From Bacteroidia bacterium (lineage in GTDB: Bacteria > Bacteroidota > Bacteroidia > UKL13-3): DNA of 64,000 bases. The stretch spans positions 1,817-65,816 of the forward strand of contig JBILVK010000006.1 of assembly GCA_044370475.1 (NCBI GenBank). The letters run 5' to 3'. Each line of letters begins with the position of its first letter. The stretch's first letter is position 1. Under the pieces are notes generated by a model, which had not been told where the DNA came from, ran no database searches, and saw only the letters and a program-made list of their open reading frames with translations. Positions 5,220-54,437 of the stretch are shown here, piece after piece. The position numbers were made by a program, and so were the translations under genes.

Positions 5220-6134
5220 TTATGGTTTTAGCAAAAACTTTAAGGGAATAGCTACGCGTTGTTGCCAAGCTCTTTCATTGTGTTTAGCCCCTTCAAATCG
5301 TAGCGACATAAAATCTTTAGCGGAGCCATATCCGCTTTCTAAACACAATTCATCCATATAGTCTTGATGCTTTGCATACCAAGCATCTAAGGTCTCAGAG
5401 CCACAATCAAAATATATTTTATGCTGTTTAGGATTTGGCAACCTATGCGCATAATACTCTATGTATGTTCTTGCGGTGCGCTCATTGTTCTCTTTTAAAC
5501 TCACTGGCCAATGGGTAGATATACATGCAACTCCTTTAATCATATCAGAGTATTTACACAATCCATATAAACTAATTAACCCACCCATGCTTGAACCCAT
5601 CATAAAGGTACTTTTCATATCTCCTTTGGTGGGATAATTTTGGTCAATAAAAGGCTTCAATTCAGTAAAGATAAACTCTAGATAAGCATTAGAAATGGAA
5701 GTGCCTCCGCGTTCCCATTTTAACTTGGTCTGACTAGCAGTATCAAGCTTATCAAAAGCATCTTGCGGATTGTATTCTAAAAACCTTTTGGGGGTGTTCC
5801 AAATGCCAACAACTATGGTTTTTCTTATGAGTCCTAAGCGCAGCAAACTGTCCATGTTCTCATCTAAACGCCATTCCTCTCCACCAAAAGAAAAGCCAGG
5901 AATAAACAAATTTTGTCCATCATGAACGTATAAAACAGCATACTTAGTAGCACCACTGGCATCAAAATTGGAAGGCAACCAGACATCAATATTTCGGGCA
6001 TCTACCAAATTGCTTTTAAACTTCTCGTACCTTATTAAACGGCCAGTTAAATAGGCATCGCTTAATTCTTGTTGTGCCTGAACCAATCCATGCGACAGAT
6101 AAAAACAAATAAATAATAACTTAAGTACTTTCAT
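5220..6134 (-). CDS. Secreted esterase of the putative-esterase / alpha-beta hydrolase family
   Basis: Signal peptide; YAVLYVHDGQNLF block and nucleophile elbow GSSMGG. Similar in its core to the 33375-34793 product. Confidence 0.65.
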   Translation of the reverse strand: MKVLKLLFICFYLSHGLVQAQQELSDAYLTGRLIRYEKFKSNLVDARNIDVWLPSNFDASGATKYAVLYVHDGQNLFIPGFSFGGEEWRLDENMDSLLRLGLIRKTIVVGIWNTPKRFLEYNPQDAFDKLDTASQTKLKWERGGTSISNAYLEFIFTELKPFIDQNYPTKGDMKSTFMMGSSMGGLISLYGLCKYSDMIKGVACISTHWPVSLKENNERTARTYIEYYAHRLPNPKQHKIYFDCGSETLDAWYAKHQDYMDELCLESGYGSAKDFMSLRFEGAKHNERAWQQRVAIPLKFLLKP

Positions 6135-6188
6135 TACAGCAAAGGTGGGGCAATAAAATTGAATATAAAAATAGGTTAAGAAGCAAAG

Positions 6189-6920
6189 TTAATCTGTAAA
6201 GATTTCATGCAACACTGCAGGCGATTTTAAATCGCCAAAAACCATCAAATGAAGTTGATAATAACGCACCATTTTAGCGAGTAAACTTCTGCGCGCAATT
6301 TGCGAAAATTTCTTGTCGTTAAAATCATCAAAACCCATGTTCATAAAGGCATGTAAGGCAAACCCTAATTCTCCTTTACAATAATCTTGTGTTTGAGGCG
6401 AATCCTTAATAAATATGCCCTCTGCCATGCTAAAGTCGCACTGTTCTAATGAATAATTATTCTTAGGAAAAAACCCCAAATATTTACTCAATTGAACCAT
6501 AAAAAAAACAGGGAAATTGGCTAAACTTCCTTCATATAAATCTACAATTTGAACCGCGTTAAAAATAAACTCAAACAACTGCGAATCCTGCTGATTATCG
6601 TCGCGTAAACTCTTAGAAAGCAATTCTGCCATAAACATGGCTAAAGTCTGTTTTGTTAAATCAAAATGCAGCTCATTTAAAATGGGTAAGCTCTTTAATT
6701 CTTTTATTCTTTGTAAGTTCTTACTCTGTTGATGGTAAACTTCAAGCTCTAACAAACTCAATGGCAGCAGGTGACTTGGCTTAATAGCAGCCTTCTTTCC
6801 ACGCAAACCACTCACCATATAGCTTTGCAAACCATATACATCGGTATAGCATTTGAGCACCACACTCGATTCCGAATAAGGAATGGTACCAATAACAATG
6901 CCTCTGCATTTAGCAAGCAT
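6189..6920 (-). CDS. recO: DNA repair protein RecO
   Basis: 243 aa. The N-terminal OB-fold pattern GIVIGTIPYSESSVVLKCYTDVYGLQSYMVSGLRGKK is typical of RecO. Confidence 0.8.
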   Translation of the reverse strand: MLAKCRGIVIGTIPYSESSVVLKCYTDVYGLQSYMVSGLRGKKAAIKPSHLLPLSLLELEVYHQQSKNLQRIKELKSLPILNELHFDLTKQTLAMFMAELLSKSLRDDNQQDSQLFEFIFNAVQIVDLYEGSLANFPVFFMVQLSKYLGFFPKNNYSLEQCDFSMAEGIFIKDSPQTQDYCKGELGFALHAFMNMGFDDFNDKKFSQIARRSLLAKMVRYYQLHLMVFGDLKSPAVLHEIFTD

Positions 6921-6924
6921 GCTT

Positions 6925-7197
6925 TTACCTTGAATTATGAGCTATTAAACCCTCTTTGGTGGCCAAATAAGAATAAGCGTGCATGTTATCAGAATCGTAA
7001 ATAAAACTACGCAAATAATCCTGCTTTTCGTCATCCCATTTCATGGCTACAACCATTTTCTTATGAATCAAAGTTTTTAAAGTATCACCTACAATTGCAG
7101 GTGTATAGGAAACTTCCTCCAATATTTTCTCAAACGGCTCCACAAAATACAAGCAGTTTAATATGTCAAATTCTAAATCGTCTATTTCTGGTATCAT
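6925..7197 (-). CDS. Small hypothetical protein, translationally coupled to the upstream glycosyltransferase
   Basis: The track ORF begins at a TTG at 7242. An ATG at 7197 (MIPEIDDLEFDILN...) forms an ATGA overlap with the GT2 stop at 7194-7196. No recognisable family. Confidence 0.4.
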   Translation of the reverse strand: MIPEIDDLEFDILNCLYFVEPFEKILEEVSYTPAIVGDTLKTLIHKKMVVAMKWDDEKQDYLRSFIYDSDNMHAYSYLATKEGLIAHNSR

Positions 7198-41116: not shown

Positions 41117-43168
41117 ATGCCTATTTTTGCTTCACAATTTTCACCTATGCTAAGCTTTAACAGAAAACAATATTCCAACGAAACGCTACTCTCCCTATAC
41201 GCTTCCTTGCTTAAACCAAGGATGATAGAAGAAAAAATGCTCATCCTACTTCGTCAGGGAAAAGTAAGCAAATGGTTCAGTGGCATTGGTCAGGAAGCCA
41301 TTAGCATAGGCGTTGTTGAAGCACTAGATAAAGACGAATACATCTTACCCTTGCACAGAAATTTAGGCATTTTTACAGGGAGAAATATTCCTTTTGCTAA
41401 ATTATTTGCCCAATGGCAAGGTAAGTATAGCGGCTTCTCTAAAGGGAGAGAACGCTCATTTCACTTTGGCACCAACGAATACCATATTGTTGGAATGATA
41501 TCGCACCTAGGTGCTATGTTGGGTGTGGCAGATGGCATTGCACTGGCCAATTTATTAAAAGAAGAAAAAAAAGTAACCGTAGTTTTTAGTGGTGATGGCG
41601 GTGCCAGTGAAGGAGATTTTCATGAAGCACTTAACACGGCAGCCGTATGGAATTTACCTGTTATATTTTTAATAGAAAACAACGGGTACGGATTAAGCAC
41701 GCCATCTAACCAACAATTTAAATTTAAGAACTTCACAGATAAAGGAGTTGGTTATGGAATGGAAGCATACAAGATAGACGGCAACAATATCTTGGAGGTT
41801 TATGATACCATGAAAAACTTGAGTGAATCAATAAGAACCAACCCAAGACCCGTTATTTTAGAATGCATCACGTTTAGGATGCGCGGACATGAAGAAGCGT
41901 CTGGCACTAAGTATGTGCCACAAGAATTGTTCGAAACTTGGGGCAAAAAAGACCCTGTGAGCAATTATGAAATCTACCTGATGCAAGAAGGTGTTTTAAC
42001 AGATTCGGTTCGAACCGAAATAAAAGAAAAAATTAAAGCAGAGATTGACAATGGAATTGTAACGGTAGAAAATGAAGTAGATATTGTTCCAGATACACTT
42101 TATGAAATGAGCGATGTGTATATGCCAACTGCTATACCAGATTCTGTGCCTACCTACAACGAACTTCAACATGTAGTTATAAAACCTGCTTCAGAAAACA
42201 AATCGCGCAAACGTTACGTAGACGCCATTAGCGACGGTTTAAGACAAGCTATGGAAAAACATTCAAACCTAGTTTTGATGGGACAAGACATAGCAGATTA
42301 TGGTGGTGTTTTTAAAATTACACAAGGATTCTTAGAGCAATTTGGTAAAGGTAGAGTACGCAATACCCCATTGTGCGAAAGTGCAATTCTAGGTGCTGGA
42401 TATGGCTTGGCCATTAAAGGAATGAAGGCAATGGTAGAAATGCAATTTGCCGATTTTGTGAGTGTTGGTTTTAATCAGATTGTAAATAACCTTGCCAAGA
42501 GTTATTACCGTTGGGGACAAAATGCAGATGTAGTAGTGCGCATGCCAACAGGCGCAGGAGTAGGTGCCGGACCCTTTCATTCGCAAAGCAATGAGGCATG
42601 GTTCTTTCATGTACCCGGATTAAAAATTGTATATCCATCATCGCCATCAGATGCTAAAGGCTTGTTAACCGCAGCTATTAACGATCCAAATCCAGTGCTA
42701 TTCTTTGAGCATAAAGTTCTTTATAGAATGGTTGAATTGGAAGAAGAAGTTTATGATGATTACTACATGTTAGATCTCACCAAAGCGCGTTTGGTTCAGA
42801 CCGGAAATGAAGTGAGCATTATAACCTACGGTGCGGGTGTTCATTGGGCCAAAGCATATGTAAAAGAGAAAAACATTGATGCAGATATTATAGATTTACG
42901 TTGTTTATTGCCTTGGGATAAAGAGGCTGTTGAAACAAGTGTAATGAAAACAGGAAAGGCCATAGTATTGCATGAAGACACGCTTACAGGTGGCATTGGT
43001 GCTGAAATTGCGGCCCATATTTCTGAGCATTGTTTTAAACACCTTGATGCACCTGTAATACGTGTTGGAAGCTTAGATACGCCTGTACCTTTTAACATGG
43101 ATTTGGAGCAAAACTTTTTACCTAAAGAGCGTTTTAAAAAGGCTTTGGACCAATTGTTAAACTACTAA
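41117..43168 (+). CDS. Fused alpha/beta E1 component of a 2-oxoacid (branched-chain type) dehydrogenase
   Basis: The N-terminal half has the TPP motif GDGGASEGDFHEALNTAAVWNLPVIFLIENNGY. The C-terminal half is transketolase-like E1-beta (NTPLCESAILGAGYGLA). The true start may be the internal Met at 41147. Confidence 0.8.
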   Translation: MPIFASQFSPMLSFNRKQYSNETLLSLYASLLKPRMIEEKMLILLRQGKVSKWFSGIGQEAISIGVVEALDKDEYILPLHRNLGIFTGRNIPFAKLFAQWQGKYSGFSKGRERSFHFGTNEYHIVGMISHLGAMLGVADGIALANLLKEEKKVTVVFSGDGGASEGDFHEALNTAAVWNLPVIFLIENNGYGLSTPSNQQFKFKNFTDKGVGYGMEAYKIDGNNILEVYDTMKNLSESIRTNPRPVILECITFRMRGHEEASGTKYVPQELFETWGKKDPVSNYEIYLMQEGVLTDSVRTEIKEKIKAEIDNGIVTVENEVDIVPDTLYEMSDVYMPTAIPDSVPTYNELQHVVIKPASENKSRKRYVDAISDGLRQAMEKHSNLVLMGQDIADYGGVFKITQGFLEQFGKGRVRNTPLCESAILGAGYGLAIKGMKAMVEMQFADFVSVGFNQIVNNLAKSYYRWGQNADVVVRMPTGAGVGAGPFHSQSNEAWFFHVPGLKIVYPSSPSDAKGLLTAAINDPNPVLFFEHKVLYRMVELEEEVYDDYYMLDLTKARLVQTGNEVSIITYGAGVHWAKAYVKEKNIDADIIDLRCLLPWDKEAVETSVMKTGKAIVLHEDTLTGGIGAEIAAHISEHCFKHLDAPVIRVGSLDTPVPFNMDLEQNFLPKERFKKALDQLLNY

Positions 43169-43170
43169 GT

Positions 43171-45213
43171 TTATATCTTACTTAAGCTGTTCCTAATTTC
43201 ATAAATGGTACTTACTTTTACATCGGGAACAATGGTTTCATTGCCTGTAATGGTAAGTGATTTCATTTGAAATACCGGCTCTCTTTTTTCATTAAAGCCA
43301 AGCACAATCATCCTTACTTGTTTGCCAATTGGGAGCTTAAGGTTATACTTATTTTTGTTATCATGATAGGCATAAACAAAACTGTTAATATCTGGAACAA
43401 AGAAAGAAACCCTAGCTGTGCCTTGATAAGGAATTTCGATTTGTGCCATTTGATTTTCTGGTGTAGTATTAAACCTATCGCAGTTTACTACGCCAAAACC
43501 ACTTAAAGAAGCAGAGTATATTTTATCTGCAGCAGTGTTTGGATCAAGCATGTCTAACTTCTCTCTTTGTTGCATAATATCTATTTGTGCAGCATCAAAG
43601 ATTTGAGCTAGCTTAGGTTCTTTTTTAATCTGTTCAATGGCAAAATCATTTACGGTATATTGATACAGAATTCTGTTTCTTTCCTTTTCTTTTAAACCAA
43701 TGAAAATCTGCGATTGCTTATTGCCATATAATCCAATAGCCATGAGTAAACTCATTTCCTTTAACTCCTCAATTTTACCCAAGCTTAACACGATATTTCC
43801 ATAATACATTTGGTAACTTCTGCTCGGTTTACTCATAGAAATAAAGACACCTTTAGGATTTAAACTGGTTAATTTTTCTTGTTCACTTATATCGCAAAAT
43901 TTATCTATCCCTTTGTTATAGCAAATCTTTTCCAATATGGTTTTTGCCTCCAAAAACTTAGTCTCAGTTTGCGCCAACCATCCCCTAAAGCTTGCCAACT
44001 CAGTAGTCTCAAAATTCGCAGAATCTGTTTTGTATTTTTCTAACGCAACCTGATAAGTATTCAATTTAGTCTCATATTTTGCCAATGCTTGTTTGTTTAA
44101 TTTTTGGCGCTTAGCATTCTCTTCATTCACTATCCTATCCATATAAGCTTTGGGATAAAAAATACGCTCATACCATTCAAAAATCTCATACTTACTTGCC
44201 ATACTTAAATCCTTGCGCTTTATTGGAGGCATAGGCCTTTTAGGTATGCTTAAAGGTTTATATAAATACTCCAAATCTTTTATATCTTGTGCATCGGCAT
44301 CCACCTTATGCTGTGCAAGAGCCTGCGTATTTATTTTAGTAAAAGGAAGCTTAACAACTTTCTTAGGTCTCACTTCAAAAGGTTGAGGAGTAGCCTTCCA
44401 TTCTGTAACACCTTGTGCAGAAACCACAGGCACAAACACCTGCATATTATTTTGCAAATTCTTAGAAGGCAAATCCACTTGAATAGCCGCCCCATCCTTT
44501 AGCTTTAGCTCCTTCCCTTTTTGCAAAACCTTTACACTAAACATGCCACCAGACTCTAACAATTTTCCATCTGCTACAGTACTCAACTGCTGAGTGGCAG
44601 CATCCATAGGCGAATAAAACTCCTCTAATTCCATGGTCAACTCGCCCGCACCAATGGGCTTTCCATCTATAGACTCAAGAGCTCCCTTAGGCAAAACCAC
44701 CTTTAAACCATTCTTTGCAACAACGGTATTTTCTACATTGGACTTTATGTTAAATCGCTGTTTGGTTTCACCTCCTATCAGCTTTAAAAACTCACCTATA
44801 TTGCCATATTCAAAATACGTAAGTGCAATATCAACCCTTCTATTCTGCGCCTTTCCCTGCGCTGTAGCATTAGATTTAATGGGCTTAGATTCGCCAAAAT
44901 AATAATGAGAAATTCTAGTTGCACTCACTCCATTTTCCTGCAAATAATTACTTACACTCAGTGCCCTTTTCTTAGACAATTCCTCATTATAATCACTCGC
45001 TGCATCCTCATCTGTATGCGCCTTTAAGACCAATTCACAATAAACATCTCCCTGCATTTTCTGGGCCAAATCAAGCAAGATTTTTTTGTCGGTCTGATCC
45101 AATACATATTCATCAGAATTGAAATGTACTTGGAATTTAACATCCCTAGTTTGGGCTTTAATTATGCCAACAAATCCCATTAGCATAATTAATAGTAAAA
45201 TATTTTTTCTCAT
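43171..45213 (-). CDS. Secreted protein with an N-terminal OmpA-like peptidoglycan-binding domain and a roughly 530-aa uncharacterised extension
   Basis: Signal peptide; OmpA_C-like AHTDEDAASDYNEELSKKRALSVSNYLQENGV...NRRVDI within the first 130 aa or so. I recognise nothing in the remainder, which includes K/E-rich helical stretches. Confidence 0.65.
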   Translation of the reverse strand: MRKNILLLIMLMGFVGIIKAQTRDVKFQVHFNSDEYVLDQTDKKILLDLAQKMQGDVYCELVLKAHTDEDAASDYNEELSKKRALSVSNYLQENGVSATRISHYYFGESKPIKSNATAQGKAQNRRVDIALTYFEYGNIGEFLKLIGGETKQRFNIKSNVENTVVAKNGLKVVLPKGALESIDGKPIGAGELTMELEEFYSPMDAATQQLSTVADGKLLESGGMFSVKVLQKGKELKLKDGAAIQVDLPSKNLQNNMQVFVPVVSAQGVTEWKATPQPFEVRPKKVVKLPFTKINTQALAQHKVDADAQDIKDLEYLYKPLSIPKRPMPPIKRKDLSMASKYEIFEWYERIFYPKAYMDRIVNEENAKRQKLNKQALAKYETKLNTYQVALEKYKTDSANFETTELASFRGWLAQTETKFLEAKTILEKICYNKGIDKFCDISEQEKLTSLNPKGVFISMSKPSRSYQMYYGNIVLSLGKIEELKEMSLLMAIGLYGNKQSQIFIGLKEKERNRILYQYTVNDFAIEQIKKEPKLAQIFDAAQIDIMQQREKLDMLDPNTAADKIYSASLSGFGVVNCDRFNTTPENQMAQIEIPYQGTARVSFFVPDINSFVYAYHDNKNKYNLKLPIGKQVRMIVLGFNEKREPVFQMKSLTITGNETIVPDVKVSTIYEIRNSLSKI

Positions 45214-45442
45214 GGTATAAATTATTTATGTGTATTCAACGCAAGAATTTTATGCCATGTTATATTTCAATCACTTTATTTTTTTTTCTAAAATATTTCT
45301 TAATTACGTCCGTTATTCATTGAATTTGAGCTTATTTAATGTCGGTCAAAAAAAACACTAATTATCAAATTGGTTCTAGACAACATCTTCTTTGCTCCTC
45401 AATTGACATAGATTTTTACTCCAAAAAAACTGAATTTCATTA

Positions 45443-45473
45443 TTGGTAAACTGAAACAAAAAAAATATATTTG
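45443..45473 (+). promoter_or_regulatory. Bacteroidota sigma-A type promoter (TTG-N20-TATATTTG) for the five-gene operon
   Basis: TTG at about 45443-45445 and TATATTTG at about 45466-45473. The -7 box ends about 20 nt upstream of the ATG at 45493. Confidence 0.45.
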
Positions 45474-45492
45474 GCCAATATCTATCAAGCAA

Positions 45493-46290
45493 ATGAAACA
45501 TAAAAATACCCTTGGCATGGTATTGCTCATTATACTTACCATGTTCCAAACCCAAAGGGTAAATGGCCAAAAAAACCGCAATGCATATTTCAGTGAATTT
45601 GGGGCATCCTTTTTTACAGATTTTTTCGCGTCGCCTGCAATTCCTGTTTCCAATTTATATTCCTTCGACAAAGACGCTAACGGTCAGCCCATCTATGTTA
45701 AATCTGAAGGCCATGTTAAATACGCCACTTTTGGAGTTGTTTCGTTTAACTATACCCCCAGATTTAATTTAATTGAGTTTAGCAATTCTAAATCATTATC
45801 CATCGAATCACCCATCACGCTTGCCATAGGCTTTGGGTTTAAAGAAGGCTATTTAACAAGCCTCGATTCGGTTAAAAACTTCTATCCCGGCTCTGCCTTT
45901 GGAACTGCAACAGGCAACAGTGTTTCTATGTTCAATTTAAGTGCACCTGTCTTTATTAGTTTTAACACCGGTCTAGGCTCTACCTATGAAAGCTTGGCAG
46001 AAAGAGGCTTAAGTGTTGGATTAGGAGTCGACATTAGTCGTCCTTTATTTTGGGTAGATGGAGGAGATTCATTTGATGATTTTGGTGATACCAAAAAATC
46101 AAACTTCTATTTCTTACCAGCAATTAACATTGGATATAGGTATTGGAGAAACGATAAGGCGTCTGACTTAAACTTAAAAATTGGCTATATGCCATCGACC
46201 GAAAAAATAACCAACCCCGAATATGATCATTCAGCATTTAAAAATGCTTTTTCCCTAAGGCTTTCTTTTAACAAAATCCTCAACTTCTAA
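45493..46290 (+). CDS. Small predicted outer-membrane beta-barrel protein, tandem paralogue 1 of 3
   Basis: Signal peptide, amphipathic beta-strand pattern, and C-terminal FSLRLSFNKILNF (terminal aromatic). Motifs shared with the next two genes: RFNLIE, G(L/A/M)G(S/A)TY.S, and PA.NIGYR.W. Confidence 0.55.
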   Translation: MKHKNTLGMVLLIILTMFQTQRVNGQKNRNAYFSEFGASFFTDFFASPAIPVSNLYSFDKDANGQPIYVKSEGHVKYATFGVVSFNYTPRFNLIEFSNSKSLSIESPITLAIGFGFKEGYLTSLDSVKNFYPGSAFGTATGNSVSMFNLSAPVFISFNTGLGSTYESLAERGLSVGLGVDISRPLFWVDGGDSFDDFGDTKKSNFYFLPAINIGYRYWRNDKASDLNLKIGYMPSTEKITNPEYDHSAFKNAFSLRLSFNKILNF

Positions 46291-46305
46291 ATACCCAATT
46301 TGATT

Positions 46306-47046
46306 ATGAAAAAAACACTGATACTCCTCCTTATATTCACTAGCATGCAAGGTTTTGCTCAAGGAATAAAAGACCGCTTCTTTACAAGCTTTGCCATCAC
46401 AGCATTAGCTGATGTTAATTTTGGCCCTTTGCAAGAAGTAAATTACACCGGCACATACAATAATGTTGAATACAAAGGATACTCAAGAGATTTTGCCTTA
46501 GGTATACTTTCTTACCAATATGGAATACGCTTTAACCTGATAGAAAAAGGTCCAGATTTTTCTGTAGGAATATATGTTCCTGTTACCGCTTCCCTTTCAA
46601 CAGGAAATGTTAAATTTCTGATGGATGGAAAAGAATACGACAATTTCACAAACACCTATGAAAACAAATCCATCGAAGGAGATTTTAACACCTTTGGGCG
46701 TGTTTCTTTTCCGGCATTTCTTCAATTTAATTTTGGCGCAGGTTCAACCTATCAGAGCGACAAAGAAAAGGGAATGACGGTAGGAATTGGTATGGATATG
46801 AGCATTTCTCCTATATTCTATTTTGATTCTGGTGTTAACAATCTTGAGGAATTTAAAATAAAACGTTTTAGTATGATGCCTGCTGTTAATATTGGAAAAA
46901 GAACAACCAAAGGAGACGAATTAGTTGAATACAACTTAAAATTTGGGTACGTATTTGGCAATAAAGAATATGTAAATGAATCGAGTAAATTAAGCACCCC
47001 AGGAATGGTTCTTATGCTTACCATTGGGAAAATTTTAAACTACTAA
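46306..47046 (+). CDS. Small predicted outer-membrane beta-barrel protein, tandem paralogue 2 of 3
   Basis: MKKTLILLLIFTSMQGFAQGIKDRFF, IRFNLIE, GAGSTYQSDKEKGMTVGIGMD, PAVNIG, and C-terminal LTIGKILNY. ATG at 46306; the track starts at a TTG at 46300. Confidence 0.55.
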   Translation: MKKTLILLLIFTSMQGFAQGIKDRFFTSFAITALADVNFGPLQEVNYTGTYNNVEYKGYSRDFALGILSYQYGIRFNLIEKGPDFSVGIYVPVTASLSTGNVKFLMDGKEYDNFTNTYENKSIEGDFNTFGRVSFPAFLQFNFGAGSTYQSDKEKGMTVGIGMDMSISPIFYFDSGVNNLEEFKIKRFSMMPAVNIGKRTTKGDELVEYNLKFGYVFGNKEYVNESSKLSTPGMVLMLTIGKILNY

Positions 47047-47050
47047 ACAA

Positions 47051-47794
47051 ATGAAAAAAACGATACTACTTTATTTACTCCTAGGTGTTTCAATTTCCTT
47101 ATCAGCCCAAGGGATAAAAGATAAATTCTTCCACCAAATAGGGTTTTCTCTGTATACAGATTTATTTTATAGCCAAGTCAAGGAACATACAGCCAATGCT
47201 AATGTGGAAGATTTTAACGGAAACTTAAAAACCATGGATATTGATGGCCAATACCGTAGTACAGAAATTGCATTAATTTCCTTTTACTATTCAGCAAGCA
47301 TTAACATCATCGAAAAAGGGGTGGAAAATAGCTACTCCATTAATATGCCCATTGGAATACATATTAGTGACGCAAAAAAAGAATTTCAAGGCGATTATTT
47401 TAATGGTTCAGTCAAAACTCCATACTACTACTATTCCGAACATTTAGGGTCCATTTCATTTCCTGTTTATCTTACTTGGAATACAGGCATGGGGGCAACC
47501 TATGCTAGTGAAAAAGAAACAGGCTTTAGCCTCGGTGTAGGTTTGGATAATAGAATGCAATTATTGTTCGTACAAGAATCAAAAGACTACAATTCAAGTC
47601 TGAATTCAAAAATGCCAGCAGTAAGCTCTTTGCCTAGCTTAATGATAGGATATAGACGTTGGAAAGGTGAAAAAGCAAAAGAGATAAAACTCAAATTGAG
47701 TTATCTCCCTTCATCCGTTTCAGGAAACGCGGTTTCTTCCTTTAACGATGGTTTTGCCGTTGCACTTTCATTCAATAAGTTCTTAAATTTTTAA
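47051..47794 (+). CDS. Small predicted outer-membrane beta-barrel protein, tandem paralogue 3 of 3
   Basis: MKKTILLYLLLGVSISLSAQGIKDKFF, INIIE, GMGATYASEKETGFSLGVGLD, LMIGYRRW, and C-terminal ALSFNKFLNF. Confidence 0.55.
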   Translation: MKKTILLYLLLGVSISLSAQGIKDKFFHQIGFSLYTDLFYSQVKEHTANANVEDFNGNLKTMDIDGQYRSTEIALISFYYSASINIIEKGVENSYSINMPIGIHISDAKKEFQGDYFNGSVKTPYYYYSEHLGSISFPVYLTWNTGMGATYASEKETGFSLGVGLDNRMQLLFVQESKDYNSSLNSKMPAVSSLPSLMIGYRRWKGEKAKEIKLKLSYLPSSVSGNAVSSFNDGFAVALSFNKFLNF

Positions 47795-47797
47795 AGA

Positions 47798-49714
47798 ATG
47801 TCTTTAAGATTATTCAGCCTATCAATTATCCTCCTTGCTTTTAGCTTCAACGGTAATGCACAAAATTTTGCAACAAAAGCAGATGGTGAATTGGCAAAGG
47901 AGCTCAGTAAAAAATATCCTAAAAGTGATGTATATGCGCTAGACCATGAAACTGTTCTCTCTTTTTCATTTAACAAATATTCGGAGGGAACTGCCATGGT
48001 TTCGGTATTTGAAGAGGATAAATATGAGCTACTTTCTTTAAAATCAAATATGGAGTTCAGCAATAGCATCACTTATGATTTCGAATCAAGTGTTAATTCT
48101 ATTTCTGGCTTCACTAAATCGGGTTCTAAGATTGCTGTGAGCTCAGTGGACATGTCGTTTAGCGAATTTTACACCACAGATACTCGGTATAAAATCTACA
48201 GGCAATACTTCAATTATGTGGGACAGGTTTATGGATTTAAAACAGAAAGAACCTTCCACGACATTAAATATTTTACCAGTGTATACTTCCCAGATTTTTA
48301 TCCTCAAAAGGAAAAGCGCATAACATTCGACGTTCCCAATTGGCTTGAACTCGAATTAAAGGAAATGAATTTTGAGGGCTACAACATTGAGAAAACCATT
48401 GTTGAAGGTAAAAAATCAAGGCGCATTACTTATACCATCAAAGATATTTTTGGGGCATACAAACAAACTAACTCCCCCGGACCCTCACATATTTTACCAC
48501 ATGTGTTAGTGATCGCAAAATCGGTAACCAATAATAACCAAACCTATACCCTTCTTAAATCCACAGATGACCTGTATAAATGGTACCGCAGCCTTGTTTT
48601 AAAGGTAAACAACAATCCAGAACCCCTCAAAGAAAAAGTGAAAGAAATAACTGCGGGCAAATCAACTGATGAGGATAAAATCAAGGCCATTTATTATTGG
48701 GTTCAAGACAATATCATCTACTTAGCTTATGAGGCGGGTTTAGCTGGATTTAAGCCAGCAGCTGCGCAAGATGTTTTCAAAAGAAGATATGGCGATTGTA
48801 AAGGCATGGCAAACCTATGTAAGGAAATGTTAAAAATTGCTGGCTATGATGCTAGGTTAACTTGGGTTGGAACCAAACTAATTGCGTATGATTATTCCAC
48901 CCCTTCCCTTTCTGTAGACAACCATATGATTTGCACCGTAGTTATAAATGGGAAAAGAATTTTTATTGATGGAACCGAAAAATATGGTTCTTACTATGTC
49001 AATGCCTATCGCATACAAGGCAGACCCGTAATGATTGAAGATGGCGATAATTATTTTTTAGACAAAGTGCCTGCCTATATCGCAGACTCAAACTTACATG
49101 CCATCAAAAGAACAGCACGTATTGATGGAGAGAACCTTGTAGGCGAGAATACACTTACCTTCAAAAACGACTATAAAACAGGTATTTTGGTTGAGTACAA
49201 CAACTTAAAATCAGAACACAAAGAAGATGCAGTAGGGTATTTTCTATCTAAAGGGAAAAATGAAATGGTATCCAATGTAAAAACAAGTGGGATAGAAAAC
49301 AGAGATGCACCCCTTGTTTTTAGCAACAATTATATTCTAAAGCACAATGTAATTCCAGATGGGAAAGAGCTCTATTTAAACTTAGATTATTCGCGTGAAT
49401 TCTTTGGATTCACCTTTGATTCTACCCGTTTATTTGATTATGAATTTCATTACAGTGAATTAAAAACACAAGAAATAAAACTAATACTACCTCCTGGTTA
49501 CAAAGTAAAATACACCCCTCAAAATTTCGAAAGAAAAGGAGAGGATTATTCATTTAACCTAAGCTATACCCTTAAGGGGAATGAACTTGTTTATAAAACA
49601 GAACTGAAGATTCCTGAAGGAATTATACACAAAAGAAATTTTGCTGATTGGAACAAAACAATCAAAGAATTAAACAAATTCTACAAAGAACAAATCATAC
49701 TTACACAACAATAA
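47798..49714 (+). CDS. Secreted transglutaminase-like cysteine protease-fold protein (DUF3857-like N-terminus, TGase core, DUF3858-like C-terminus)
   Basis: Signal peptide. The TGase-core triad context is intact: RRYGDCKGMANLCKEML (Cys), VDNHMICTV (His) and IFIDGTE (Asp). Confidence 0.65.
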   Translation: MSLRLFSLSIILLAFSFNGNAQNFATKADGELAKELSKKYPKSDVYALDHETVLSFSFNKYSEGTAMVSVFEEDKYELLSLKSNMEFSNSITYDFESSVNSISGFTKSGSKIAVSSVDMSFSEFYTTDTRYKIYRQYFNYVGQVYGFKTERTFHDIKYFTSVYFPDFYPQKEKRITFDVPNWLELELKEMNFEGYNIEKTIVEGKKSRRITYTIKDIFGAYKQTNSPGPSHILPHVLVIAKSVTNNNQTYTLLKSTDDLYKWYRSLVLKVNNNPEPLKEKVKEITAGKSTDEDKIKAIYYWVQDNIIYLAYEAGLAGFKPAAAQDVFKRRYGDCKGMANLCKEMLKIAGYDARLTWVGTKLIAYDYSTPSLSVDNHMICTVVINGKRIFIDGTEKYGSYYVNAYRIQGRPVMIEDGDNYFLDKVPAYIADSNLHAIKRTARIDGENLVGENTLTFKNDYKTGILVEYNNLKSEHKEDAVGYFLSKGKNEMVSNVKTSGIENRDAPLVFSNNYILKHNVIPDGKELYLNLDYSREFFGFTFDSTRLFDYEFHYSELKTQEIKLILPPGYKVKYTPQNFERKGEDYSFNLSYTLKGNELVYKTELKIPEGIIHKRNFADWNKTIKELNKFYKEQIILTQQ

Positions 49715-49718
49715 TCTT

Positions 49719-52022
49719 ATGAGAAAAATATTGCTATTTATACTTGCTACCTTACTGTTTTTGGGGAGCACCTTTGCACAAAGACCGTCTGAAAGAAGAA
49801 AAATCCAACAGCAACAAGCCGCCACAGACGCCATTCAAGAGGAGAGTGAAGAAAAAGTTTCTGATAAAAAACTAAGTCCAAGCGAACTTAGAAAACAACG
49901 CTTAGAAAAATCAAATTTTGAATCCAACTTAAAGGAGTTCAATTCAGATTTTGACCTCAATGAGGCTCCTGAAGCCTATAAAAAATACTCTGCTGTTATT
50001 TTGGCTCAGACCGTTGATTTTGACTTTGTAGCTACCAAAGAAAATGGTCTATTAGAAAAAAGAAAAGTAAGAAGAAAAATTGCCATCCAAGATAAATCTG
50101 CCTTAGAAACCTTTTCTATGTTTTATACTACATCAGGTTCTAGCTATAAAATATTTGTTATAAAAGCTGACAAGTCGATAAAGGAAGTATCTAAGAAAGC
50201 TGCTTTAACAGAAAAACTTGGTCTTACAGATATCCCTGATTTCTTTTTCGAGTTTATAGGCACTTCCGATGAAATTGTAAAACTTCCTATTCAAGGTTTA
50301 GAAATAGGAGATGTTTTGGATATTCAACAAGTGGTAGATATCAATACCTATGTTTATTCAAACCCTTTTACCAGCGCTCCAGTTGTAGAAGTGTTATCAA
50401 ATAACTACCCCCTCTTAAAGCAACACTTTGGCATGACGGTTCCGCCAAATTACAATATTCAATTGTTTAGTTTAAATGGCGCACCCAAGCCAGAAATAGA
50501 GGATAAGTCAGATGGCTCTAGGTTCTACGTAATTTCGGATACCATGCGCAGCACCTCAAATAAAGAATACTACAATTATTTGCTTAGAAGTTCTCCTGTT
50601 ATTAAATTCCAATTGACGCAAAAATCTAGGGTAAAAACGAAAAATATTGGCGACAATTTTGATGCCTCATTAAGTGAGGATGATATTGTTCAATTGGCCA
50701 ATCAAAGAGTTTCTCCAAGCATAGAATATCAAGCCTCGCTTTCAAAATCAACCATCAGGCATATTAAAAGTTTGAAACTTCCTCCTGGCTCAACAGAAGA
50801 AATTGTGAAGCAAGCCTACTATTTTTTAAGAACCGTAACTTTGGTTAAATTAGACGGAAGAGAGTCAACCCTTATCCTTATGTATGGTGGAAAACTAATA
50901 AAAGATGGCGCCCTGGAAAGTATGCATGAGGATTTGTTTTTGGGCGTTTTACGCGATGTATTTGATGAGTTTGAAATTGATTATGTAAACCTCGCTGGCG
51001 TATCAAAAAAATACGGTTCTATCAAAGATGTGATTCACCAAAATGAAATAGCAAAAGGATTAAAGGTAAATACCAATAGTAAGCCTTTATATATCTTTAA
51101 TGCAAATCAACATAGCCATTTCAACAACATTTATCCCATGATGGAGGGCACAGAGGTATTGACATACGTGAATAAAAGGAGCCGAAGCAACAAAGACAAC
51201 CATGAGGTCTCTTTAGAAAAACTTCCTGAATACAATTATGACGAACAGTATGTGAAAGAGTCAAGCACCATCAAGGTGAGCGAGAACATGGAAAACCTTC
51301 TGCTCCAAAAGCAATTTGAAGTAAAAGGAAGTCCGAGATACGATTACTATGACAATATCTTATTCCAACGAAAGTTTGTTGCCAGCGACCTTGAAAGAAT
51401 CAAAAGAAAGCCTGACGCAGATGTAGAGGTTTCTAAAAACAAGGTGAAGCAAGCGGCCTACCTTAAAGCCAAACAAGAAGAGGAGGATAAAAAATATAAA
51501 GAAGCCATGGATGAATTTAAAAAGCTCTTCGAAAATCAAAAATTTGATGTAGAAAAAGTGAGTGATTTTGAATTAATTTCAGATGGCAGATACGACGATT
51601 CTCCTGTATTAAGCTTTAAAATAAATACAGAATTTAAAAATCTTATTTCTCAAGCTGGCCCAAACTATCTTGTTTCCATTGGAACTCTTATTGGATCCCA
51701 ATTGGAGCTTAAGCCAGATGATATGACGCGTAATTTTGATATATATCAAAACTATAGAAGGACCTTTATTGATGAAATTTCATTTGAGGTTCCCGAAGGT
51801 TACATGGTAGCTGACGCCAGCGGTTTAAACATGAAAGTTGATAATGAATCGGCCTCATTTATTTCTGTAGCAGAAATCAGTGGTAATACCCTTAAAGTTA
51901 AAACCACTAAAACCTATAAGAAATTGTACGATCCAAAATCAAAATGGGAGAATTACATCAAAGTTTTGGATGCAGCATATGAATTTCAACAAAAGAAAAT
52001 TATCCTAAAGAAAAAGGCTTAA
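49719..52022 (+). CDS. Secreted DUF3857/DUF3858-like paralogue lacking the transglutaminase catalytic Cys
   Basis: Signal peptide. KQAYYFLRTV aligns with KAIYYWVQDN of the upstream protein, but no GDCxG/H/D core follows. The C-terminal GNTLKVKTTK...KKIILKKK resembles GNELVYKTELK...EQIILTQQ. K/E-rich helical insert. Confidence 0.55.
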   Translation: MRKILLFILATLLFLGSTFAQRPSERRKIQQQQAATDAIQEESEEKVSDKKLSPSELRKQRLEKSNFESNLKEFNSDFDLNEAPEAYKKYSAVILAQTVDFDFVATKENGLLEKRKVRRKIAIQDKSALETFSMFYTTSGSSYKIFVIKADKSIKEVSKKAALTEKLGLTDIPDFFFEFIGTSDEIVKLPIQGLEIGDVLDIQQVVDINTYVYSNPFTSAPVVEVLSNNYPLLKQHFGMTVPPNYNIQLFSLNGAPKPEIEDKSDGSRFYVISDTMRSTSNKEYYNYLLRSSPVIKFQLTQKSRVKTKNIGDNFDASLSEDDIVQLANQRVSPSIEYQASLSKSTIRHIKSLKLPPGSTEEIVKQAYYFLRTVTLVKLDGRESTLILMYGGKLIKDGALESMHEDLFLGVLRDVFDEFEIDYVNLAGVSKKYGSIKDVIHQNEIAKGLKVNTNSKPLYIFNANQHSHFNNIYPMMEGTEVLTYVNKRSRSNKDNHEVSLEKLPEYNYDEQYVKESSTIKVSENMENLLLQKQFEVKGSPRYDYYDNILFQRKFVASDLERIKRKPDADVEVSKNKVKQAAYLKAKQEEEDKKYKEAMDEFKKLFENQKFDVEKVSDFELISDGRYDDSPVLSFKINTEFKNLISQAGPNYLVSIGTLIGSQLELKPDDMTRNFDIYQNYRRTFIDEISFEVPEGYMVADASGLNMKVDNESASFISVAEISGNTLKVKTTKTYKKLYDPKSKWENYIKVLDAAYEFQQKKIILKKKA

Positions 52023-52064
52023 CCAAAACTAAAAAACATATTAATCTTATATTTTCTTTAGCAC

Positions 52065-52093
52065 AAAAAATGCCTCGTAATGAGGCATTTTTT
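52065..52093. terminator. Bidirectional intrinsic terminator closing the five-gene operon
   Basis: aaaaaa-TGCCTC-gtaa-tGAGGCA-tttttt. Confidence 0.6.
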
Positions 52094-52105
52094 GTGGAAT
52101 AAATT

Positions 52106-53056
52106 TTAATGGAGAATAAACTTCTTTAGGGTCTCCAAGTAGTTTTCAAATCCGTAGGTCACGGGAACCGTTCCATGGTCGGCTCCCTCTATTCTATGAG
52201 CCTCTTTGTAATTACCTCCATGATTTTTAAACACTACTTCCCCATGGGTTTTGATGTTTAAAAAATTGTCTTGCGTGCCATGTATCCAACATAGGTCTTG
52301 ACTCACTTTTTTTATCTCTTCAGCATTGTCAATTTTTAAATTGGTGACGTAAGACCCTGGCAAATCTAATCCAGAACCATCTGCCACCATGATAGCAGAG
52401 CTACCAAAAGGAGCTTCCAAGATTACCTTGTGCGGGCGCATACTCCGGCTGTTGGCGCTTAACTCGCAGGTGGGTGCAGAACCCATGCTAAAGCCATAAA
52501 TGATTAAGCGCTCATTGCTTAATCCCTTCGATTTTAACCATTGCATGGCTGCATCTACATCATTGTATAAACCCTCTTCACTTGGCGGACCCTCAGACAA
52601 TCCATATCCTCTATAATCTAGCATCATCACGCCATAACGATGCTTGTAACCAGTATGGGCTAAGAGTTTGGCTCTTTGCCAATAAAAATCCATATGCCAT
52701 TTGTTTCCATGGCAATACAAAATAACCGTATCGGTGCCAATTCTGCTTTCCTCACCCAGGTAAGTAGCATATATTTTATAACTCTTGCTATCATTAGCCC
52801 CTTTAGAATCTAAGGTAAATACATGGTGCATGGAATCTTGAATGGTATAACTCGCATCCAACTTAAAATCTTGCTCCCCGGTATAATTATCCCATTTGTA
52901 TTCTGTTATTTTATCACTCAAATTAAAGAGATTGCTATCCAATCTTAAACAAGAAGATAAGACCAAAGTATAAAATAGCGCTACTAACAAAATTGCTTTT
53001 GAGCTTCTAACTTTACTCATCAAAATCACCTGCATTTTTATCCTATTATTTTTCAT
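52106..53056 (-). CDS. Alpha/beta hydrolase lipoprotein
   Basis: Lipobox LVLSSC, HGN oxyanion-type block LYCHGNKWH, and nucleophile elbow GFSMGS. The start may be the internal Met at 53020 (MSKVRSSKAILL...). The 53056 ATG overlaps the upstream stop by 1 nt. Confidence 0.65.
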   Translation of the reverse strand: MKNNRIKMQVILMSKVRSSKAILLVALFYTLVLSSCLRLDSNLFNLSDKITEYKWDNYTGEQDFKLDASYTIQDSMHHVFTLDSKGANDSKSYKIYATYLGEESRIGTDTVILYCHGNKWHMDFYWQRAKLLAHTGYKHRYGVMMLDYRGYGLSEGPPSEEGLYNDVDAAMQWLKSKGLSNERLIIYGFSMGSAPTCELSANSRSMRPHKVILEAPFGSSAIMVADGSGLDLPGSYVTNLKIDNAEEIKKVSQDLCWIHGTQDNFLNIKTHGEVVFKNHGGNYKEAHRIEGADHGTVPVTYGFENYLETLKKFILH

Positions 53057-53733
53057 TAGAACCTCCTTATTATTTGAAAATATACTCCAATAGCACCCAT
53101 GTGATTTGGACCAATATAATCTGCCACATTTGGCTGATTAGGCACATTTGGAGCCACCCATTTAGTTTCAATTCCATATGTCCACTTCTTGGGTGCATAT
53201 TGAAAACCCAATTGCGGATTCATATACCAATGTTTGGGCTGAACCTCCCCATGTGCGCGATTCTGACTAAGCTCAAACCAATTGCAAACCCCAACATAAA
53301 ACAACTTGTTTGAACCAATCTCCTTGTAAACATTCATATCTAATTGCGGCCACAACTTAGCCTTCCACTCCCATCGGTCAATGGCAAAATTAAGAACCGG
53401 ATTAGCGGTGAACCCAAACTTATTTTTCTCATTGCGATACAATTCTCTGCATACCCCAATATCCGTTTGAAACACCCCAAAAGACAATGCAGTTAAATGC
53501 AATGAGCCAAAAACACTTGTTTTATCATTTATCCCCTTTGCATAAAATGCACTCGTATAAGGAATGGTTATTGGCAATCCTCCAAAACTGATTAATGGCC
53601 CGCCTAAATTTGCCCCAATGGCTTGCTCTCCCTTAGCCAAAGGCTTAACAATACGTGAGGGAGCACAAGAGATTACAAAGGCAGAAACAAAAAACAAACC
53701 CATTAAAGACCTTAGAAATCCATGATTCTTCAT
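53056..53733 (-). CDS. Hypothetical lipoprotein, beta-rich (possible outer-membrane protein)
   Basis: MKNHGFLRSLMGLFFVSAFVISCAP lipoprotein signal, an aromatic-rich beta pattern, and ends IIRRF. No recognisable family. Confidence 0.4.
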   Translation of the reverse strand: MKNHGFLRSLMGLFFVSAFVISCAPSRIVKPLAKGEQAIGANLGGPLISFGGLPITIPYTSAFYAKGINDKTSVFGSLHLTALSFGVFQTDIGVCRELYRNEKNKFGFTANPVLNFAIDRWEWKAKLWPQLDMNVYKEIGSNKLFYVGVCNWFELSQNRAHGEVQPKHWYMNPQLGFQYAPKKWTYGIETKWVAPNVPNQPNVADYIGPNHMGAIGVYFQIIRRF

Positions 53734-53930
53734 ACTCTTTTTTTTATCGCAATATATTTGGATTTTGAAAACCATCTACTCCAAATTCCAAAATAATATT
53801 GCAGAATCTCCTAAATCGAATTGTTTTTTTTGCATTTTATACAATTCTTTTACCCCCATTTTACTCAAATCCGTTTTCCTACAATAAAAATTGAATTCAA
53901 TTTTGCGCCAGAATTTATACAATAACGTAT

Positions 53931-54437
53931 ATGGAAAAACTTGCAAAATTTAGGGTAACAATTTTTATGTTACTTGTTCTAAGTATTCAAAGTTGCAGCT
54001 CAGAGAAAAGCTTAAATTTAACTGACACAAACCATGGCAACTATTTGCTTGGAAATTGGGAAGGAAATCAACAGATAAAAATTCGTTACCAAGAGGGTTT
54101 TGGCCAATATACTTTTATACACTCAAAAGAAAGCCTCCCAACCCATTTAAGTATAAATAACAAAGGTGAGGTAAAAGGGAAAATTGGAGAAGCGAATATC
54201 CAAAATGCCAGGGTGATTTCTAATCGTGGTGCATTGTTAAGAACCTTAGGATGGGCAAGCGATTTTGCAATAAAGGGAGAATTACAGGGCTCCATATTTT
54301 CACAAGACACCCTATCATTTAGAACTTTTTCAATTCCTCTCAAGTGCGACAGCCTAACATTAAGTGGCGATTTATTTCAAACAGAGGGATTAGACATGTT
54401 TCCAATGGGCACTTTAAACCTTAAGCACAAAGAATAG
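53931..54437 (+). CDS. Hypothetical lipoprotein
   Basis: Signal and lipobox LLVLSIQSCSS. 168 aa, no recognisable family. Confidence 0.4.
   Translation: MEKLAKFRVTIFMLLVLSIQSCSSEKSLNLTDTNHGNYLLGNWEGNQQIKIRYQEGFGQYTFIHSKESLPTHLSINNKGEVKGKIGEANIQNARVISNRGALLRTLGWASDFAIKGELQGSIFSQDTLSFRTFSIPLKCDSLTLSGDLFQTEGLDMFPMGTLNLKHKE

Follow-up and report, generated by a model that had tools for sequence, protein, structure and literature searches.

A five-gene operon in an uncultured Bacteroidia bacterium (Bacteroidota, UKL13-3) joins what appears to be a phylum-wide pair of exported proteins, an enzyme and its inactive homologue, to a rare family of small outer-membrane-type beta-barrels. The operon occupies positions 45493-52022 on the + strand of a 64,000-nt stretch of contig JBILVK010000006.1 (assembly GCA_044370475.1, forward-strand positions 1,817 to 65,816). 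We call this whole stretch the window, and coordinates are positions within it unless another locus is named. Its five open reading frames (ORFs) encode three small barrel paralogues (g1-g3), a predicted transglutaminase (TGase)-fold cysteine enzyme (g4), and a homologue of that enzyme that has probably lost catalysis (g5). Our comparisons of sequences and gene neighborhoods indicate that g4 and g5 form a conserved Bacteroidota enzyme/pseudoenzyme unit, not a peculiarity of the window, and that the barrels are most probably a rare, lineage-restricted add-on to the pair in a few deep lineages.

The genes follow one another closely as g1 (45493-46290, 265 aa), g2 (46300-47046, 248 aa from a TTG start), g3 (47051-47794, 247 aa), g4 (47798-49714, 638 aa), and g5 (49719-52022, 767 aa), with spacings of 9 nt (15 nt when counted from the g2 ATG), 4, 3, and 4 nt. 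The alternative g2 ATG at 46306 gives a protein of 246 aa and is the start used in the public metagenome-assembled genome (MAG) annotation GCA_964544835.1. An initial annotation of the window, made from the letters alone, had described five same-strand genes with 3-15 nt gaps, signal peptides on all five products, three small beta-barrel paralogues, a g4 with a complete Cys/His/Asp core, and a g4-like g5 in which that core was lost. The ORF coordinates and the signal peptides, which we saw by eye, agreed with this description, and the three assignments of protein type held up as well in the comparisons below.

The g4 protein scored 44.2 bits against the Pfam model Transglut_core (PF01841), for which the cut-off is 23 (E = 2.6e-11). 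Its motifs GDCKG (residues 332-336), DNHMIC (374-379), and FIDGTE (389-394) hold a predicted triad of Cys334, His376, and Asp391, whose codons lie on the + strand at 48797-48799, 48923-48925, and 48968-48970 (together 48797-48970). All three residues, in the contexts YGDCKG, VDNHMIC, and D-x-T-E, were invariant in alignments of 19 and 54 sequences. The Cys-His spacing of 42 and the His-Asp spacing of 15 are ones that we take to be typical of the transglutaminase-like family, and we assigned the triad because of this invariance together with the spacing. Transglut_core was found in 54/54 of the g4 homologues, DUF3857 in 31/54, and DUF3858 in 20/54 (E < 0.01). The initial annotation had proposed Pfam searches for these domains and for outer-membrane barrel families, and they gave a mixed answer for the window proteins: Transglut_core exceeded its cut-off in g4, whereas DUF3857 (14.1 bits vs 24.6) and DUF3858 (14.2 bits vs 27) stayed below theirs in g4 while being present in its homologues, and the barrel models also stayed below cut-off.

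Structure models were made for g3 and g4 as monomers. The AlphaFold2 model of g4 had a predicted local distance difference test (pLDDT) value of 91.3 and a predicted template-modeling (pTM) score of 0.85. By far its best Foldseek match in the PDB was 3kd4_A (E = 4.7e-28, probability 1.00, 619 columns), with template-modeling (TM) scores of 0.57 normalized to the query and 0.70 normalized to the target. A lower match was 3isr, a putative cysteine protease of Cytophaga hutchinsonii (E ~1e-7), and the N-terminal beta-sandwich of g4 resembled the N-domain of M1 aminopeptidases. PDB sequence searches with g4, g5, and both family profiles returned nothing meaningful, and we rejected matches to RAD23 and a clamp loader (E 0.3-0.5) as chance; the relation of g4 to 3KD4 is thus visible at the level of fold and Pfam domains only. 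The model and the alignments together identify g4 as a probable transglutaminase/papain-fold protein of the BDI_1141 type (DUF3857, TGase core, DUF3858) with an intact Cys334-His376-Asp391 triad. Over 3,700 homologues, each about 640 aa long, bear no annotation beyond 'transglutaminase-like domain-containing protein'; their sources are Flavobacterium, Aequorivita, Lacinutrix, Chitinophagaceae, Saprospiraceae, and MAGs labeled as Chlorobi. The identical g4 protein was present in 40 blocks of a public assembly collection.

The g5 protein is related to g4 along its entire sequence, signal peptide and C-terminus included, and this was visible only at the profile-profile level. A pairwise BLASTP comparison of the two proteins was not significant, while hhalign of the two families aligned 613 columns with a probability of 98.2% (E = 3.4e-14), from position 2 to 644 in one profile and from 3 to 740 in the other. 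DUF3857 was found in 15/17 members of the g5 family, which we refer to as the partner family. No Cys occurs in g5, Cys never reaches 40% of sequences in any column of the partner alignment, and neither Cys nor His is conserved at any position of the family. The stretches of g4 around GDCKG and DNHMIC align to gaps or unconserved positions. The pattern argues that g5, though homologous to g4 over its full length, has no nucleophile and is catalytically dead.

Pairing of the two proteins was nearly universal in the loci that we compared. In 80 metagenome loci, selected as g4 relatives at 35-51% identity and with their ORFs scanned by hidden Markov models (HMMs) for barrel, TGase, and partner families, a partner gene lay directly downstream of the TGase gene in every locus long enough to show it, one locus (L071) being the sole case of reversed order. 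The same adjacency was found in Flavobacterium sp. NRK1 (L002), the MAG Bacteroidetes bacterium B1(2017) (L001), GCA_025356715 (L004), and two further loci (L094, L095). In ~29/80 loci a ~797-aa E1 dehydrogenase alpha/beta fusion (E1_dh + Transket_pyr + Transketolase_C) sat directly upstream of the TGase gene, for example at 3496-5886 in L019 and 3320-5713 in L044. The window has an E1 dehydrogenase-type gene at 41117-43168, one gene cluster away from the pair, with an OmpA-family gene and the barrels in between. The ancestral order appears to have been E1 dehydrogenase, TGase, partner, to judge from these neighborhoods. This synteny is long-range and places a metabolic gene beside envelope genes.

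The three barrel proteins are paralogues with ~30% mutual identity and 45 invariant columns, and their own HMM matched g1 at E = 5.5e-84. They share the motifs N-x-G-x-G-[SA]-T-Y and G-x-G-x-D and a C-terminal L-N-[FY], with g3 ending in FLNF. The signal peptide of g1 ends in VNG|Q, and the predicted mature N-terminus QGIKD[KR]FF is conserved in g2 and g3, as part of a broader alignment pattern Q-G-[IF]-K-D-[KR]-F-F. The C-terminal residue was aromatic (F or Y, as in LNF, LNY, IGY, and IDY) in 27/27 aligned members. The AlphaFold2 model of g3, built on an alignment of 8 sequences, was all-beta (pLDDT 82.1, pTM 0.77) with ~12 strands, a strand number that, like closure of the barrel, is read from the DSSP string alone. 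Nearly all of its top 50 Foldseek matches in the PDB were outer-membrane barrels, among them the OmpA transmembrane domain, OprG/OmpW, Pla/OmpT, Legionella porins, and autotransporter beta-domains. By fold class, then, the model suggests that g1-g3 are outer-membrane-type barrels lying outside every curated family; NCBIfam returned nothing for any of the three.

A word-indexed search of 5.8 billion proteins found 7 close relatives of the barrels, and an exhaustive profile search extended this to 330 clusters (50% identity, E <= 1e-3), 132 of them with E <= 1e-10. Nearly all of the 330 clusters were 210-290 aa in length. A profile from 8 barrel sequences matched a single genome, B1(2017), among 185,579 species representatives. 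The family of g1-g3 is thus modest and previously unnamed, with ~330 clusters at 50% identity, and is absent from Pfam and NCBIfam. In two very long proteins, P0139 (2269 aa) and P0246 (5798 aa), the stretch 81-140 of the barrel profile found 19 and 12 matches, respectively, which are either a compositional artefact or a repeat whose beta-hairpin-like unit looks like a portion of the barrel. On the contig of P0153, at least four to five small same-strand genes stand in tandem (237, 237, 289, 324, and 157+ aa), with barrel-family members among them.

Genomic linkage of the barrels to TGase genes elsewhere had been set beforehand as a test of the operon as a unit, and we found it in B1(2017), GCA_025356715, and three further loci (L040, L088, and L090). 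In B1(2017) (L001/L003, NKJG01000003.1) there are at least 3 tandem modules compared with the single module of the window, in the order three barrels, TGase, and partner, then one barrel, TGase, and partner, then a barrel that opens a third unit. The locus of GCA_025356715 (L004) has two barrels, a TGase, and a partner behind a radical-SAM/SPASM gene (6040-7059). The short contig of P0132 appears to have a similar context, with a radical-SAM/SPASM gene directly before the barrels. This gene, present in both loci, may belong to the module there, for example as a peptide-modifying maturase. On the Chlorobi-labeled contig L090, two barrels lie divergent to the TGase-partner pair, and a barrel lies directly upstream of the TGase in 2/80 of the metagenome loci (L040 and L088). 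The number of barrel copies per module varies from 1 to 3. Linkage of barrels and pair therefore recurs in unrelated neighborhoods, with at least four contexts and two orientations, and in a rough neighbor-joining tree of the TGases the barrel-linked loci formed two groups on deep branches.

Barrel-linked partners differ from other partners at their N-terminus, where an extra charged segment of ~20-55 aa directly follows the signal peptide. In g5 the segment spans approximately residues 21-75 (49779-49943, + strand) and begins QRPSERRK...KKLSPSELRKQRLEKS...; it reads QRPSERRKIQQQQAATDAIQEESEEKVSDKKLSPSELRKQRLEKS... and has 12 K/R and 14 D/E in 63 residues. A motif of the form [KP]-L-[ST]-x-S-[EQ]-x-R ("SE[LI]R"-type) was common to the window, both complete B1(2017) modules, L004, L040, and L088, and the L090 partner had the shortened form SHSEIRESK. 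The extension was present in 8/8 barrel-linked partners vs ~1/60 unlinked ones; in the ~59 full-length unlinked partners that do not have it, the signal peptide runs straight into a P-[ED]-K-W-K-N-E-S-A-V block. Long partner N-termini in five other loci (L010, L019, L041, L068, and L077) were rejected as artefacts of upstream ORF starts.

The sequences of all five products point to export by the general route. In each, a basic n-region and a hydrophobic core precede an A/G-Q cleavage context. Gln is the first residue after the predicted cleavage site in all five and in nearly all homologues, being invariant in the barrel and TGase alignments and nearly so in the partner alignment. Under the Bacteroidota 'Q-rule', signal peptidase I substrates have an N-terminal Gln that is converted to pyroglutamate. 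Gln at the +1 position of g1-g5 would be consistent with this rule and with processing of the signal-peptidase-I type. We rejected a lipoprotein reading, as g1, g2, g3, and g5 have no Cys and the first Cys of g4 is residue 334, with no lipobox. A reading as type IX secretion (T9SS) cargo was also rejected, since none of the five proteins matched PF18962 or a Por_Secre_tail-related model at E <= 1. Autotransporter and two-partner secretion were rejected because the barrels are separate polypeptides of ~230 mature residues and there was no POTRA, Autotransporter, or ShlB Pfam match. With no lipobox and no T9SS C-terminal domain, the periplasm or outer membrane is the default destination.

From these observations we propose a working model for the barrel-linked variant. 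The barrels g1-g3 would reside in the outer membrane, with g4 and g5 forming a complex that would be either periplasmic or located at the outer membrane. Docking on the barrels would take place through the N-terminal segment of g5, so that they would hold the complex at the periplasmic side of the outer membrane, and the three barrel copies may serve as alternative or multimeric anchors. The pseudoenzyme g5 could act as an adaptor or a substrate-presenting subunit while g4 would cleave or transamidate a peptide bond of an envelope substrate, either a protein or a peptidoglycan peptide. Docking was proposed because extension and barrels co-occur. We give the package as a whole, meaning an envelope enzyme/pseudoenzyme complex of g4 and g5, docking of the g5 extension on the barrels, and action of g4 on an envelope peptide bond, about an even chance of being right, and most of the uncertainty falls on the docking step.

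Several results weigh against this model and against a barrel assignment for g1-g3. The Foldseek TM scores of the g3 model against solved barrels were low, at about 0.17-0.4. No Pfam model reached its cut-off for g1-g3 (the best was OMP_b-brl_2, 20 bits vs 27), and only 3/27 barrel-family members had a weak generic match to a Pfam outer-membrane-protein (OMP) model, again below cut-offs. In 78/80 metagenome loci the pair has no adjacent barrel. P0260, a distantly related barrel (profile E = 1.4e-10), is a lone copy beside housekeeping genes with no TGase neighbor, and further relatives stand in tandem on contigs of insufficient length to show TGase linkage. The L094 partner has a degenerate extension (LGPGDVRRMENEQKE) and no barrel within 5 kb. 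The 8/8 count for the extension is also not eight independent observations, as the linked loci may descend from 1-2 ancestral events.

These results also qualify two further proposals of the initial annotation. It had treated the pair and the barrels as one special module, of which the linkage stood; the pair is not peculiar to this locus, being phylum-wide and part of a family of more than 3,700 members, and in most lineages it can do without the barrels. It had also offered that the barrels anchor, export, or are substrates of the enzyme. The anchoring or docking option gained a clue in the g5 extension, and we obtained no result in support of export channels or substrates.

One alternative leaves the barrels out of contact with the pair. 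As small diffusion channels or porins, they would pass substrate in or products out and be co-transcribed as genes of the same pathway. This would suit barrel relatives that occur alone or in tandem arrays with no TGase, the variation of copy number from 1 to 3 per module, and the resemblance of the g3 model to generic small outer-membrane barrels. It leaves the co-occurrence of barrels and g5 extension unexplained, however, and nearly all of the sampled pairs manage with no barrel beside them, and we consider it unlikely. The barrels might instead be substrates, processed by g4 or cross-linked to peptidoglycan or each other, with g5 recruiting them. The fold supplies both activities, as PF01841 transglutaminase-fold enzymes include proteases and cross-linkers, and the tight gene coupling and the conserved mature barrel N-terminus would also fit. 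Yet a pair that is conserved phylum-wide where barrels are missing must have something else as its primary substrate, and this reading seems to us improbable, clearly more so than the channels. Least probable of all is incidental insertion of the barrel genes between the E1 dehydrogenase gene and the pair with no functional tie. The apparent ancestral order without barrels speaks for it, as does the place of the OmpA-family gene and barrels in the window; it is opposed by barrel-pair adjacency in at least four different neighborhoods and two orientations, by tandem duplication of whole barrel, TGase, and partner modules in B1(2017), and by gaps of 3-4 nt, which indicate co-translation.

A more specific version of the proposed docking concerns where the charged segment would lie. 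Barrel and g5 segment could make up a new two-piece outer-membrane anchoring or threading device, in which the segment sits in or passes through the ~12-stranded barrel and attaches or surface-exposes the heterodimer with neither lipidation nor type IX secretion, the three paralogues offering alternative or hetero-oligomeric docking sites. We put this forward as speculative, with a low probability similar to that of the channels. Threading in the strict sense, with the segment through the barrel lumen and g4-g5 or the g5 N-terminus exposed at the surface by a split, non-T9SS device, is somewhat less probable again. It can be likened to the linker helix of autotransporters or to the RcsF linker inside OmpA/OmpC. 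The ~12 strands from DSSP would accommodate it, the extension is long, charged, of low complexity, and co-occurs with barrels, neither g4 nor g5 has a T9SS C-terminal domain or lipobox, and autotransporter beta-domains (3aeh, 2qom, 1uyn, and 4mee) were among the weak Foldseek matches. All of the Foldseek matches were weak, though, 8-stranded OmpA- and OmpW-type barrels scored equally, and most pairs have no barrels and presumably work in the same compartment. Docking at the periplasmic face is the form of the model that we retain.

The genomic setting suggests that the five genes are one transcription unit, and the gaps of 3-4 nt indicate co-translation. A promoter and a strong bidirectional terminator had been predicted at its two ends, and we located a candidate for each. 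The putative Bacteroidota-type promoter TTG-N20-TATATTTG lies at 45443-45473 on the + strand, with its -7 box at 45466-45473 and 20 nt before the first ATG. The Bacteroidota promoter consensus is TTTG/TAnnTTTG. Within the window the whole pattern occurs at chance frequency (3 matches vs 2.55 expected), as does the -7 box TANNTTTG alone (101 matches vs 97 expected), and a sigma-70 consensus scan of the region is uninformative for Bacteroidota. The call was made because of the position of the motif and the block AATATATTTGGC, which is perfectly conserved in the orthologous, otherwise diverged intergenic region of B1(2017), and not because of pattern frequency. This conservation supports TTG-N20-TATATTTG as a probable promoter.

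At the downstream end, an intrinsic terminator hairpin of 15 bp lies at 52062-52096. By direct folding its free energy (dG) was -22.5 kcal/mol (z = -7.0), and 0/200 shuffles folded equally well. An A-run and a T-run border it, so that it could terminate both convergent units, in keeping with the predicted bidirectional role. A terminator consensus scan missed it because the T-run belongs to the stem. Rfam detected no RNA element in 43000-54000. The hairpin is shared with the convergent gene at 52106-53056 on the minus strand, an alpha/beta-hydrolase gene that forms the downstream boundary. The upstream boundary is a 279-nt intergenic region common to the operon and a divergent OmpA-family gene (43171-45213, minus strand). 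An HMM scan of window ORFs found no other member of the barrel, TGase, or partner families.

Two neighboring genes also encode exported proteins. The product of the divergent OmpA-family gene is 680 aa long; residues 31-125, at its N-terminus, scored 70 bits as an OmpA_C-like peptidoglycan-binding domain, and ~550 residues matched no family. B1(2017) has a 680-aa OmpA-family gene at the equivalent position (L001 3339-5381), and no such gene was seen beside the other barrel-linked loci. The protein may be functionally part of the module. Beyond the hydrolase gene, and overlapping it by 1 nt, a gene at 53056-53775 (minus strand) encodes a 239-aa protein with no Pfam or NCBIfam match and the C-terminus IIRRF. 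It may be another small outer-membrane barrel, and membership in the g1-g3 family was rejected since it had no HMM match.

The enzyme and its dead twin occur together in thousands of Bacteroidota, and the only landmark for them is a structural-genomics entry, 3KD4, that is itself unexplained. The cell envelope is the likely target of a cysteine enzyme that is exported, conserved, and obligately accompanied by an inactive partner, and identifying the g4 substrate would close a gap in what is known of the Bacteroidota envelope. The barrel-linked variant adds a defined candidate interaction, that of the barrel with the N-terminal segment of the partner, and g1-g3 define a new family of small outer-membrane barrels that no curated library covers. 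In the literature searched we found no characterized system with such a layout, as the initial annotation had supposed, no characterized precedent for a transglutaminase-fold envelope enzyme/pseudoenzyme pair, no description of a paired dead paralogue or barrel for BDI_1141, and no functional study of DUF3857, DUF3858, BDI_1141/3KD4, or Flavobacterium transglutaminase-like proteins.

Known systems match parts of the operon to different degrees. The nearest to g4 is BDI_1141 of Parabacteroides distasonis (3KD4), a structural-genomics 'putative protease' and the prototype of the DUF3857, Transglut_core, and DUF3858 combination, with the same fold and probably the same three-part architecture. 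Sequence identity between the two is 10%, and g4 had no HMMER match to any PDB chain. Since BDI_1141 has no assigned function, the comparison gives g4 a fold and a family and no mechanism. Papain-fold enzymes of PF01841 such as 3ISR have in common with g4 the core fold and the Cys-His-Asp arrangement (GDC...H...D); g4 differs from them in its extra N- and C-terminal beta domains, in being exported, and in being always paired with an inactive homologue. The barrels are like other small outer-membrane barrels (the OmpA transmembrane domain, OmpW/OprG, OmpT/Pla, and the OMP_b-brl and OMP_b-brl_2 families) in their signal peptides, all-beta model, and C-terminal aromatic residue, and unlike the OmpA, OmpW, and OmpT types in having their own motifs, in reaching no curated-model cut-off, and in their low TM scores. 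As a general principle, neighboring enzyme/pseudoenzyme pairs offer the closest analogy for the arrangement of g4 and g5, which likewise combine an intact enzyme with a dead full-length homologue and stay adjacent over large evolutionary distances. Set against these systems, the superfamily of g4 and the 3KD4 architecture were known already, and what appears to be new is the obligate pairing with a dead paralogue and the barrel family.

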